From Ostreococcus lucimarinus (lineage: Eukaryota), in assembly GCA_000092065.1 (NCBI GenBank), contig CP000585.1: a DNA stretch of 64,000 nucleotides; one strand, written 5' to 3'. The stretch's first letter is position 1. Each line of letters begins with the position of its first letter. A program made the translations under genes and the position numbers. Positions 55,798 to 59,469 of the stretch are shown piece by piece. The notes under the pieces are model-generated. The model worked only from the letters and a program-made list of their open reading frames with translations, did no database searches and was not told where the DNA came from.

Positions 55798-58700
55798 ATG
55801 GAGCGCCGATCGACGCGCCGCGCGACGAGTAGCGCCCCCGCGCGCGCGAAGCGCACGCCCAAGATTAATTCCCAGTTTGCCCGCGATTTTGTCGTGGGAG
55901 AAGTCGCGCGACGCACGCGCGACGACGCCGATGGGAAATCCCGGGTCTCTGGCGTCGGCAAACTGTCGAGAAAAAGTGCATCGAAGAAGAAGAAGGTCGC
56001 GAACGCACTGCGTAAGCGCTTGTTACGCCAGAAAAGAGCGTCGGACAACGCAACGCGATGGCGCGTGGGATTACGGGCGCGCGCGCCGGCGATGAAGGCG
56101 ACGAGTTGTCGAAATCTGGTCAAAGCGGTCACCGCGGGGTTACTGCACGAAGCCAACGCCGTAAAGGCGACGTGGTTGAACGGCGCGGGCGTGACGATCG
56201 CTACCGAACGACGGTCGCGAATGCGTGTTCGGACGAGTGCGTGGCATTTGGAACGTCTGTCGTCGTTTATCGGGGACACGAGTTCGTCGTTTTGGGAAAA
56301 TCATCCGGATTTCGTCGTCGGCGGCGACGCGACGAGCGACGGCGACGAGCCGAAACGCGACCCGTTCGTGCAGTGGATGTGTCGAGCGAAGGAACTGGCG
56401 CCGGATGTGTTTAGTCGTGAAATGTCTTTTGCGCGGGAGTTTTCGCGTGATGGCGCTCGACCGTTTACGACGGCGATACGTATGATTGATGAGTGGACGA
56501 CGTCGAGTCTTCGCCGATTGCACGCGCACTTTCCAGGATGTGTCGATGATAGCTGGAGAACTGGCATTCCAAGAGACATACCGCTCTTGCCGGACCCCGA
56601 GAGCGTCGACAGAGAGCATGCTGCGGGAGAAAGTGAAAATGTGATCGCATCTGATGTGTCGGCAGACGCGAGTGCAAACGCTCTTCAAGGCTTCGTCGCC
56701 GCGCCGATGTCGCACGCGACGCCGGCGCCGGTCAGCGAGAGCGGCGCTCAGCTGAGTTTCGTCGCGCAGGTTGCCGCACAAAGCTTTGCGCTCGACGCAT
56801 TTCCTATTCTCCCACTCGAAATCTTACCCGTAGAACACTTCGTGCTCGGGCTCTGGAGTTCTAAGAACGCGACGACACCCGGATCACCGCCGTCAAAGCC
56901 AAATGATACGTTTTCGCTACCCTGGCTGGATTCGGCGTGGATCGACCTGATGGATTCAACCCCAAAATCTCCACGAAAGCAGCGAGCGCGAGTATGGCGA
57001 GGAAAAAATTTGGACATGATCGTGTACGGCGAAGATGAAAAGCAAACGTGGGCTTCGAAGATTGCCGCGTTTCTCAAGCGCGCTCGATCGGCACTTGGTA
57101 ATAGAGTGCTCGATCGTGGGGCTTGGGGAGGGTCCATTCTCGATAGTCTCATCGGCGCAAATCTCACACAAAACGTCAGCGATGTATTGTCGAGTACGGC
57201 GTTTATGAACCTTGCGGCGAGGTTTCCGTACAACGCATCGACGGCGGAGCAGCACGACTCTCGCGCGTACATTCACCGAATCGTCGGCGAAATGTTTGAC
57301 AGAATCCGCGAAGGCATCGAGCCGAAGGCGGTGGTTGTGCCCGATGAACTTCCAGGTAAACCCATCGATGAACTCTCATTACGCCCCAAACGCACGGTGG
57401 TGAAGAAGAAACTCAATGCGAAGAAGGCGAAGAAGGGTCCACTGCGCAAGTCGAGAAAGGTGGCGGCGGGCGTCATCGAGCAGGTCCTGGCGAGGCCAGA
57501 TCCGCCTCGAACGGAACACACGACTGATCAGGTAGACTGGTACGCCGTTTTGGACGCACCGCTCGTTGAAATCGTCAAGTGCATCAGATGCCGTGGCATG
57601 CACTGGATGCTCGCGCGACGCATCAAAGGTATTTTGAAACGAGTCATGGCGCAACGTGGATGTCTTTCGCTTGAATTTTTGCGCGACACGCCGACAAGAG
57701 ATGCCAACGAATATCTGCTCGCTCTCGACGGTATGGGCGTGAAGACGACGTCTTGTGTGCTACTTCTTGCGTTGCATCGCACAGACTTCCCCGTCGACGT
57801 TAACGTCGGGCGTATCATGGCTCGTTTGGGTTGGGTGCCACTCGAGAGCGAAACTGCTCTTGAAGAGCTCGCGCAATACGCTCCTGAACCTGCGGTGTAT
57901 ACTTTCTTGCGCGAACGTCTTAACTCTTTCGGCGTTGAGATGCTTTACGAGTTACACTACCACATGATTACACTGGGAAAAGTTTTCTGCGGTAAGCGCC
58001 TGCCAAACTGCGGTGCGTGTCCACTTCGGGATGTTTGCGAATACGCCAAGCAAGGCGGCAAGTGCGTTGATCGACCAGACGGGCACTCTGGTCTCGCGTC
58101 TCTGCAACCAGAACTTCCCACCAGAGCTCGACCATTGAATGACATCGAGGATATTGGAGGTCAAACTGTGCCGCGCACTTCGAATGTACACGAAAACGTC
58201 GCGAAAGATGGCTCGTCGTACGTGCTGAAAGCCATCATCGCCGCCGGCGTGGAATGGGACAAGAAGGGGCGACCCGAAGGTGCACTCGCGACGAATGTTT
58301 TACTCTTGAGCGCGGCAACATCGAGAGAAGATGTTCAACTTGCATACGTCCGCCTCTCTCGTGTGGTTCACCCGGACAAGAACTCTCACCCCGACGCTTC
58401 GCTGGCGTTCAATTACATCACCATGGCGCGTAAAGTTGCGCTCAACATCACAAACAACGACACGTTGGCTCAGAATATCGAAGCTGAGCTCGAAGAAATG
58501 ATCCGATTATCGGTGGAAGACGTAGAGGAAGTGCCCATGGATGAATTTACGGGCATGGAGCTCAGTGAAACAGTCATCAAAGCAAGCAAAGTTCGCGCCG
58601 AAACACTCGGATGGTCGGTGCCGACGACTTTACTCCCGCGACAAATCATTGACGAACTTGGCGGTGAGTCGAGTGCGTGTGGCTGCATCATGGTTCCCTT

Positions 58701-59469
58701 GGACTCGAACTTGAAATCACTTGACGAAATCACAGCCAAAACGGTAGACGTCGCAATTCTGGTTCCTTGTATCTCGGCGATGAAGAAAAAGTTCCCACTG
58801 CACGGCACGTACTTTCAAGTCAACGAGGTCTTCCTCGACGAAGTTTCGTCGAATGTTCCGCTCAAAGTCGAAAAGACACAACTCTCGAAATGCAAGCGCA
58901 TAAGAGTGCTCGTCGGAACGTCCATCGGAAGCATTGCTCGTGGAATGTCGCGCGTGCAAGTCACGGCGGCGTTTGCGAGTCAACGCATCTGTGTTCGAAC
59001 GTGGAACAGAACGACCAAGCGTCCCGGACCGCTACCGCGATGGCTGTGTCCGTTCTTCCCGCAACCCGTGGAGAGACCTCTCGAGCCCGAGCCATCGCCT
59101 TTGACGAAGAACGGTCGACCGATGAACCCGACGCCTTTGTCGCCGGTATCAGTGCTAACATTGGCGCAGAGTCCGCAAATCGCGACCATGGCCGCCGCAG
59201 CGCCGGTGGATTCCGTCGAGCACAGACTCCTCGAAGAATTTCAGCGAATGTTCAAGGGCAAATCAAAGCCCAAGATGCCACCTGGCCTCAAGCGCGCGTT
59301 CAACGAGTCCAACGATGGTTCATCGCGCAAACGTCGCGCACTGTTCCCAAAAGTTCTTCGGCACCAGAAATGCGGATTCTGCCGCAATTGTCTCAATCCC
59401 AGTTTTAAACAAGCGTGTCTCACGCGGCGTAATCAGATGCGTCTGAGCATGGCGTCGCCTACCGCGTGA
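55798..59469 (+). CDS. DEMETER/ROS1-like HhH-GPD DNA glycosylase (putative 5-methylcytosine glycosylase/lyase) with [4Fe-4S] loop, J-domain-like insert and C-terminal permuted-CXXC-like Cys cluster
   Basis: ATG at 55798. IVKCIRCRGMHWMLARRIKGILKRVMAQRGCLSLEFLRDTPTRDANEYLLALDGMGVKTTSCVLLLALHRTDFPVDVNVGRIMARLGWVPL is collinear with the DME catalytic core (GLGLKS...VDTNVGRIAVRMGWVPL). CGKRLPNCGACPLRDVCEY (FCL motif). EDVQLAYVRLSRVVHPDKNSHPDASLAFNYITMARKV (HPD J-domain-like). C-terminus KCGFCRNCLNPSFKQACLTRR. Confidence 0.75.
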   Translation: MERRSTRRATSSAPARAKRTPKINSQFARDFVVGEVARRTRDDADGKSRVSGVGKLSRKSASKKKKVANALRKRLLRQKRASDNATRWRVGLRARAPAMKATSCRNLVKAVTAGLLHEANAVKATWLNGAGVTIATERRSRMRVRTSAWHLERLSSFIGDTSSSFWENHPDFVVGGDATSDGDEPKRDPFVQWMCRAKELAPDVFSREMSFAREFSRDGARPFTTAIRMIDEWTTSSLRRLHAHFPGCVDDSWRTGIPRDIPLLPDPESVDREHAAGESENVIASDVSADASANALQGFVAAPMSHATPAPVSESGAQLSFVAQVAAQSFALDAFPILPLEILPVEHFVLGLWSSKNATTPGSPPSKPNDTFSLPWLDSAWIDLMDSTPKSPRKQRARVWRGKNLDMIVYGEDEKQTWASKIAAFLKRARSALGNRVLDRGAWGGSILDSLIGANLTQNVSDVLSSTAFMNLAARFPYNASTAEQHDSRAYIHRIVGEMFDRIREGIEPKAVVVPDELPGKPIDELSLRPKRTVVKKKLNAKKAKKGPLRKSRKVAAGVIEQVLARPDPPRTEHTTDQVDWYAVLDAPLVEIVKCIRCRGMHWMLARRIKGILKRVMAQRGCLSLEFLRDTPTRDANEYLLALDGMGVKTTSCVLLLALHRTDFPVDVNVGRIMARLGWVPLESETALEELAQYAPEPAVYTFLRERLNSFGVEMLYELHYHMITLGKVFCGKRLPNCGACPLRDVCEYAKQGGKCVDRPDGHSGLASLQPELPTRARPLNDIEDIGGQTVPRTSNVHENVAKDGSSYVLKAIIAAGVEWDKKGRPEGALATNVLLLSAATSREDVQLAYVRLSRVVHPDKNSHPDASLAFNYITMARKVALNITNNDTLAQNIEAELEEMIRLSVEDVEEVPMDEFTGMELSETVIKASKVRAETLGWSVPTTLLPRQIIDELGGESSACGCIMVPLDSNLKSLDEITAKTVDVAILVPCISAMKKKFPLHGTYFQVNEVFLDEVSSNVPLKVEKTQLSKCKRIRVLVGTSIGSIARGMSRVQVTAAFASQRICVRTWNRTTKRPGPLPRWLCPFFPQPVERPLEPEPSPLTKNGRPMNPTPLSPVSVLTLAQSPQIATMAAAAPVDSVEHRLLEEFQRMFKGKSKPKMPPGLKRAFNESNDGSSRKRRALFPKVLRHQKCGFCRNCLNPSFKQACLTRRNQMRLSMASPTA

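Follow-up and report, generated by a model that had tools for sequence, protein, structure and literature searches.

The DNA of the alga Ostreococcus lucimarinus examined here is a 64,000-nucleotide stretch of contig CP000585.1 (GenBank assembly GCA_000092065.1), referred to as the window. One of its genes (55798..59469, + strand) raises the question of whether a DEMETER (DME)/ROS1-type DNA glycosylase can carry a DnaJ-type J-domain, and what such a domain would do inside a base-excision enzyme. We found that the gene encodes a member of this enzyme family with the catalytic Lys and Asp intact, the Fe-S cysteines in place and a J fold with an invariant HPD motif, in an arrangement conserved across chlorophyte classes.

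A preliminary description, made from the sequence alone, had regarded this architecture as undescribed. However, Zhang et al. (2019, PNAS; PMC6717269, and its preprint) had already reported that chlorophyte and stramenopile DME homologs carry "the Hsp70-interacting DnaJ domains" as well as "classical CXXC ... at distinct positions", with the permuted CXXC confined to Streptophyta. The legend of their Figure 5 lists DnaJ (PF00226), and for this architecture they cite Iyer, Abhiman and Aravind (2011). The chlorophyte homologs in that figure have the same domain set and order as the window protein: HhH-GPD, Fe-S loop, DnaJ, RRM-fold and a classical CXXC outside the Fe-S-to-RRM interval. Public orthologs also bear precomputed DnaJ and RRM_DME Pfam matches. 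The claim of novelty therefore fails: the DnaJ-in-DEMETER architecture of chlorophytes is known, and the window gene is a real but ordinary member of the family. Our additions are small, namely that the J-domain sits in a disordered spacer and that it co-occurs with a terminal CXXC unit, never with Perm-CXXC.

The glycosylase core and the J segment

The protein belongs to the DME/ROS1 family, as first proposed, on every feature that can be judged from sequence. Its best match among PDB sequences was Arabidopsis ROS1 (7yhq, E 7e-81), which aligned in two stretches that flank the J segment, residues 409-749 (split glycosylase) and 973-1081 (C-terminal domain). An AlphaFold model of residues 396-1105 matched best the cryo-EM structure of ROS1, 7yhp (E 2e-17, template modelling (TM) score 0.79, target-normalised), followed by endonuclease III structures. 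As in ROS1, a long variable insert interrupts the glycosylase: the ROS1 alignment covers residues 396-480 and 566-755, the sequence between them is not conserved, and the core of this insert (approximately residues 507-552) had a predicted local distance difference test score (pLDDT) below 50 in the model. The motifs quoted in the preliminary description were all found, including the HhH motif GMGVKT with catalytic Lys649 (57742-57744), the VDVNVGR motif with catalytic Asp667 (57796-57798) and the Fe-S loop CGKRLPNCGACPLRDVC (residues 731-747, 57988-58038; Cys731-x6-Cys738-x2-Cys741-x5-Cys747). Lys649, Asp667 and the four Fe-S cysteines were invariant in 9/9 aligned sequences. It is on the ROS1 matches, the model match to 7yhp and these invariant residues that the family assignment rests. 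Excision of 5-methylcytosine (5mC) with apurinic/apyrimidinic (AP)-lyase activity is predicted from the conserved catalytic and LTQNVSD residues. When the whole protein was searched against Pfam, RRM_DME was matched strongly (E 1.3e-29; 102.8 bits, cutoff 34.6) and HhH-GPD and the Fe-S loop weakly; NCBIfam matches were to monofunctional glycosylase, Nth and MutY models. ROS1-family enzymes contain intrinsically disordered regions, including a long one between the glycosylase and C-terminal domains, and in ROS1 these two domains jointly form the 5mC pocket (PMC7617993).

The J-like segment (ATNVLLL...HPDK...MARKVAL; residues 831-882, 58288-58443) follows the Fe-S loop as had been described, at a distance of approximately 85 residues from the last Fe-S cysteine rather than approximately 70. 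The J core comprises residues 829-882 (58282-58443), and HPD occupies residues 858-860 (58369-58377). Taken as an isolated 97-residue segment, this region scored 31.2 bits against Pfam DnaJ, above the cutoff of 27.8, and one ortholog (P0005) scored 32.7 bits. A profile built from 20 family J segments retrieved 62 PDB sequences at E<=0.01, every one of them a J-domain; DNAJC27/RabJ was the top match (2.5e-15), followed by DNAJC8 and DNAJB12. These three share the J-domain subtype only. Their contexts are a Rab-like GTPase (DNAJC27, also RBJ), the spliceosome (DNAJC8) and the endoplasmic reticulum membrane (DNAJB12), and no shared client is implied. The structural model of residues 800-905 (pLDDT 86.4, predicted TM score 0.79) consisted of a leading helix, J helices I-III and a trailing helix, with HPD between helices 44-58 and 68-82 (numbering of this model). 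J-domains made up 28 of the 30 best Foldseek matches, ranks 1-28 included, and the helix II-HPD-helix III core superposed at approximately 1-1.5 Å, also on the DnaK-bound DnaJ J-domain (5nro_B). By sequence and by model, the segment is a genuine, conserved J-domain, in agreement with the preliminary description.

A long helix, VLKAIIAAGVEWDKKGRP (residues 800-828, 58195-58281; pLDDT >90), precedes J helix I and is conserved across Mamiellophyceae-type homologs. It may explain why DNAJC27 was the closest structural match (73 aligned residues).

In the AlphaFold model the J module was confident and both flanks had pLDDT <50; it would therefore be a compact folded unit held by flexible segments between the two parts of the catalytic core. 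The modelled J-domain thus lies within the disordered spacer that separates the glycosylase from the C-terminal domain. The features of the gene are listed below, with their support in parentheses.

55798..59469, + strand: complete coding sequence of the DME/ROS1-family glycosylase, single exon (open reading frame (ORF), translation, identity to public gene call P0001, colinear orthologs)
55798..56982, + strand: N-terminal region, residues 1-395, basic, poorly conserved, no recognised domain (identity table, Pfam)
56983..57237, + strand: glycosylase domain part 1, residues 396-480, with the LTQNVSD motif at 57163-57183 (aligns to ROS1 7yhq; close orthologs 85-95% identical)
57238..57492, + strand: disordered insert splitting the glycosylase, residues 481-565, equivalent of ROS1-family IDR1 (22-40% identity among close orthologs)
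57493..58062, + strand: glycosylase domain part 2, residues 566-755, HhH and [4Fe-4S] loop (ROS1 alignment, ortholog alignment, NCBIfam)
58063..58194, + strand: flexible linker, residues 756-799, first half of the spacer, with DIED at 58141-58152 (pLDDT <50; 49-70% identity among close orthologs)
58195..58512, + strand: J-domain module, residues 800-905, leading helix, J helices I-III and trailing helix
58513..58752, + strand: second half of the spacer and leader of the C-terminal domain, residues 906-985, KVRAETLGWSVP, counterpart of plant SRLRTEHxVYELP (alignment with P0021, P0022 and Micromonas-type proteins)
58753..59040, + strand: RRM_DME C-terminal domain, residues 986-1081 (Pfam PF15628, second ROS1 stretch)
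59329..59445, + strand: C-terminal module, residues 1178-1216, KRRxLFP...KCGxCxxCLNPxxKQACxTRRN (conservation in orthologs and distant homologs)

When the alga, Micromonas-type and land-plant DME-like sequences were aligned, the plant leader of the C-terminal domain, DIED...SRLRTEHxVYELP, fell after the J-domain; P0022 was used for the SRLRTEH leader, its row ending before the Perm-CXXC region. An identification of J helix I (ATNVLLLSAATS) with the plant ALVALxPxAAS motif was considered and rejected, as the plant motif aligned downstream of the J-domain in the alignment of Micromonas-type and plant sequences.

The N-terminal region contained many gaps in the alignment and was only 34-44% identical to that of close orthologs (21% for P0014), and a Pfam scan of the N-terminal approximately 400 residues alone found no domain. 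One block within it (residues ~200-260, ~56395-56580; RDPFVQWM..AKELAPDVF..F.REFS.DG.PFT...ID.W) was conserved among Ostreococcus-type orthologs and matched no Pfam family. The DemeN domain and basic-repeat N-terminus of angiosperm proteins are absent from the alga protein.

Coding status and conservation of the J-domain

The gene lies in a single ORF (55705..59469, + strand) that is open from a TTG. The first ATG, at 55798, yields a product of 1223 amino acids plus stop, which was 100% identical in BLASTP to P0001. A stop-free run of 1254 codons would arise by chance with a probability of approximately 1e-21 at 56% GC. Because the window ORF is colinear with its orthologs and, both before and after the J segment, with ROS1, this segment is read as coding sequence within a single exon, as had been suspected. 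In two orthologs (P0010 and P0012), homology stopped right after HGTYFQVN within RRM_DME (from window residue ~1007), a pattern that suggests an intron or frameshift in these lineages. The window ORF continues without a break at this point (YFQVNEVFLD, the same as in ROS1).

Among close orthologs, identity was 75-86% in the J segment vs 45-70% in its flanks, a sign of purifying selection that speaks against an intron. Amino acid identity per region was used in place of the ratio of nonsynonymous to synonymous substitution rates, because saturation of synonymous sites is to be expected between orthologs that are only ~60% identical. In the ortholog alignment, HPDK and the flanking L-S-R and A-F-x-x-I-T-x-A-R positions were invariant. 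A homolog search returned 13 clusters at ~60% identity, all of which had a precomputed DnaJ match and all except P0013 an RRM_DME match too. The same search retrieved more distant Micromonas-type proteins, and DnaJ was matched at the same relative position in Micromonas commoda-type (XP_002500051 cluster), zf-CW-type and other long homologs. Compared to the Micromonas-type homologs, the Ostreococcus-type protein is shorter and lacks their N-terminal Tudor, zf-CW, HARE-HTH and mono-CXXC modules.

When residues 760-1100 were used as the query of an exhaustive search, 397 matches were returned, and a hidden Markov model of the J segment, run on the retrieved proteins, detected an HPD-bearing J segment in approximately 13 more, far more distant RRM_DME proteins. 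Pfam DnaJ lay 100-200 residues upstream of RRM_DME in 9/9 tested members of this distant set, in 3/9 above the cutoff. Named examples are from Auxenochlorella protothecoides (XP_011399155, "Transcriptional activator DEMETER"), Botryococcus braunii, Ostreobium quekettii (UniRef name "J domain-containing protein") and Myrmecia bisecta. The J-domain is thus shared by members of Mamiellophyceae, Trebouxiophyceae and Ulvophyceae. HPD followed by K/R was invariant in every homolog, down to ~20% identity across the J segment, and at least 29 cluster representatives, drawn from several chlorophyte classes, had the same domain order.

The 90%-identity cluster of one algal DME homolog (P0094) included two short partial "Pseudomonas aeruginosa" proteins, WP_162978850.1 and WP_162949632.1, encoded on contigs of 310-524 bp. 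Eukaryotic contamination of these bacterial assemblies is the likeliest explanation.

The neighborhood of the gene was also examined. Directly upstream is a 2-hydroxyacid (phosphoglycerate-type) dehydrogenase with a weak ACT-domain match, split over two ORFs (53749-54600 and 54702-55595, + strand), and a short intron is therefore implied at ~54.6-54.7 kb. A DME ortholog on a 714-kb contig (locus L001) likewise has a 2-hydroxyacid dehydrogenase directly upstream, and the locus is therefore syntenic. The downstream gene (60390-61793, + strand) codes for a protein that combines a PX domain with a long coiled-coil region. The segment at 60.0-61.0 kb is very GC-rich (0.72), and the long overlapping ORFs on both of its strands are probably spurious.

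The C-terminal cysteine unit

The RRM_DME region, whose fold in the ROS1 structure has been called BAH-like (PMC7617993), is followed in the window protein by a four-Cys unit, CGFCRNCLNPSFKQAC (residues 1192-1207, 59371-59418; Cys1192/1195/1198/1207). The preliminary description had the protein end in this unit and likened it to the permuted CXXC. The unit is indeed near the C-terminus, with 16 further residues after it, but the likeness to the permuted form did not hold. The cysteine order, CGxCxxC-x8-C, is classical and the unit is placed after RRM_DME. In a land-plant protein (P0021), Perm-CXXC has the order C-x8-C-x4-C-x2-C and is located upstream of the RRM; it is a separate insert directly before RRM_DME, and the corresponding columns are gapped in algae. 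Pfam found no Perm-CXXC (PF15629) in the window protein or its tail at E<=10, and matched P0021 at E 2.4e-8. From its sequence, we take the tail to be a putative single CXXC unit in the classical order and reject the permuted reading.

No mono-CXXC (PF15626) match was obtained in Pfam for the window protein or its tail, and Pfam, NCBIfam and PDB scans of the tail of the window sequence alone for Perm-CXXC, mono-CXXC and zf-CXXC gave nothing significant. With a 16-sequence tail profile, the two best PDB matches were TET3 CXXC domains at sub-significant values (E 0.15-0.16), aligned to the second unit. The commonest Pfam match was zf-CXXC, in 10/16 tails, again sub-significant (best E 0.042), so that the two signals, though weak, agree with each other. 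TET3/CXXC4-type and KMT2/DNMT1-type zf-CXXC domains have in common with the algal tail a CGxCxxC...C followed by a basic K-x-x-C-x-x-R-R. However, these domains contain eight cysteines and two zincs (PF02008), whereas the algal module has one CGxCxxC and one distal Cys, that is, one four-Cys unit and presumably one zinc. The module was conserved at the same C-terminal position in Ostreococcus-type orthologs and in nine distant chlorophyte-type homologs, in which it covers ~40 residues (xRxxxFPxIxRxxKCGxCxxCLNPxxKKACxTRRAEM).

The distribution of these modules was counted with crude regular-expression patterns. Among 132 full-length-like representatives, 29 had the J-domain, 75 a Perm-CXXC-like pattern and none both. 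The CXXC unit was present in 20 of 169 family representatives; the J-domain accompanied it in 19, and the remaining one (P0095) is a 206-aa fragment. When the CXXC tail followed RRM_DME, the J-domain was present in all 17 such proteins among the 169 representatives. In a Micromonas commoda-type protein (P0019, residues 462-511 and 674-689), a CGxCxxCLxPxxKKxC unit was located N-terminal to the glycosylase instead of at the C-terminus. This protein also contained a Pfam mono-CXXC (PF15626, N-terminal segment), a Tudor domain and a weak HARE-HTH match. Thus, the CXXC unit moves within the family while the position of the J-domain stays.

Arabidopsis ROS1 and DEMETER (7yho, 7yhp, 7yhq) have in common with the alga protein the split glycosylase, the catalytic Lys and Asp, LTQNVSD, the Fe-S loop, the SRLRTEH-type leader and the RRM_DME/BAH-like domain. 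They differ in having Perm-CXXC directly before RRM_DME and no J-domain, whereas in the alga protein Perm-CXXC is absent, the J-domain is placed earlier in the spacer and a classical CXXC unit lies near the C-terminus.

Possible roles of the J-domain

A J-domain has one established activity: through HPD it binds Hsp70 in the ATP-bound state and prompts hydrolysis of the ATP, and Hsp70 then clamps a nearby client. In the alga enzyme, the flexibly tethered J-domain would dock ATP-bound Hsp70 in this way and set off hydrolysis, and Hsp70 would clamp a nearby segment of the enzyme itself or of bound chromatin. Chaperone energy could then remodel or release the enzyme-DNA complex, for example off a tightly bound abasic product or nucleosomal DNA, and the CXXC unit may aid in sensing CpG or methylation status. 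According to what is reported of the 2009 work of Ponferrada-Marin and colleagues, ROS1 is a slow-turnover, product-bound enzyme. Dense CG methylation in Mamiellophyceae was reportedly described by Huff and Zilberman in 2014. DNMT5-type methyltransferases have been reported in Mamiellophyceae, and DML genes in Ostreococcus (PMC9861306), which makes a methylated substrate plausible.

Our preferred reading, to which we assign a probability of roughly 0.6, is that of an Ostreococcus-type DME/ROS1 ortholog with the chlorophyte domain arrangement: a split HhH-GPD with the [4Fe-4S] loop, a J-domain in the spacer, RRM_DME completing the base pocket and a putative terminal CXXC-type zinc unit, in which Hsp70 docked via HPD would remodel or release the enzyme-DNA complex and CXXC would sense CpG. 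Chaperone-coupled demethylation may reasonably be inferred. Several observations weigh against this reading. On the whole protein, Pfam DnaJ scored 26.1 bits (E 9.2e-6), just below the cutoff of 27.8. The canonical J helix IV was not evident: the Pfam match stopped at profile position 52/63, and the trailing helix was modelled less confidently. In a comparison by eye, helix II contained fewer basic residues than that of E. coli DnaJ. The scores behind the CXXC assignment are below significance (E 0.04-0.2), and the identity of the Hsp70 client is purely a matter of inference.

An alternative that we consider unlikely is that the segment is a degenerate or structural J-like module, such as Tim16/Pam16, that does not engage Hsp70 and is a mere spacer or protein-protein interface in the enzyme. 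Against this, HPD and the following K/R persist in every homolog even where the rest of the segment has diverged, J-like proteins without Hsp70 stimulation typically lack HPD, and the family profile matched canonical J-domains at E 1e-15 to 1e-9.

It is distinctly unlikely that the J-domain is an anti-silencing, transcription-promoting module like Arabidopsis DNAJ1/DNAJ2, fused to an enzyme that finds methylated DNA and assisting neither catalysis nor turnover. Precedents exist: SUVH1/3 bind methylated DNA and bring in DNAJ1/2 against silencing (PMC10396365), and plant ROS1 targeting uses the chaperone-family alpha-crystallin proteins IDM2 and IDM3 (PMC12228296). The SUVH1/SUVH3-DNAJ1/DNAJ2 complex likewise couples methylated-DNA recognition to a J-protein; however, it does so in trans, via an SRA-domain reader and without a glycosylase. 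Moreover, the likeness to DNAJ1/2 shown here is that of the generic J fold, the closest J-domains found being those of DNAJC27, DNAJC8 and DNAJB12, and the mechanism of DNAJ1/2 is itself not clear.

Still less credible is a third possibility, drawn by analogy with HscB/HSC20-Hsp70, that the built-in J-domain would recruit Hsp70 for maturation of the enzyme's own [4Fe-4S] cluster. ROS1 does depend on MET18, in the context of Fe-S maturation (PMC12228296). However, HscB-type proteins need a scaffold-binding C-terminal domain, and Pfam found none here; HscB matched more weakly than generic J-domains, and the Fe-S glycosylases Nth, MutY and plant DME work without a J-domain. A gene-model artefact, either a merger of two adjacent genes or an in-frame intron, is very unlikely in spite of the apparent intron in the upstream dehydrogenase gene, because ROS1 homology on both sides of the J-domain covers the glycosylase (N-terminal) and RRM_DME (C-terminal) parts that one enzyme needs together (PMC7617993), orthologs are colinear, the J segment is more conserved than its flanks, the domain order recurs across chlorophytes and so long an open frame is improbable by chance.

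As a discovery, the gene matters little. What remains of interest is the role of a J-domain inside a base-excision enzyme: it is strictly conserved across chlorophyte classes, excludes and is excluded by the plant Perm-CXXC, and would be flexibly tethered between the two parts of the catalytic core. As a compact, transformable alga from a class with DNMT5 and, reportedly, dense CG methylation, Ostreococcus would be a tractable system for examining whether Hsp70 acts in DME turnover, chromatin access or maturation. Of wider reach, but unlikely, is the possibility that the J-domain and terminal CXXC are the ancestral state of DME in the green lineage, in which demethylation by these slow, product-bound enzymes was first driven by Hsp70 recruited in cis, and that streptophytes later exchanged the built-in J-domain for Perm-CXXC and trans-acting partners (chaperone-family alpha-crystallin IDM2/IDM3, DNAJ1/2). 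If this is true, active DNA demethylation would have in Hsp70 a cofactor that has gone unrecognised.

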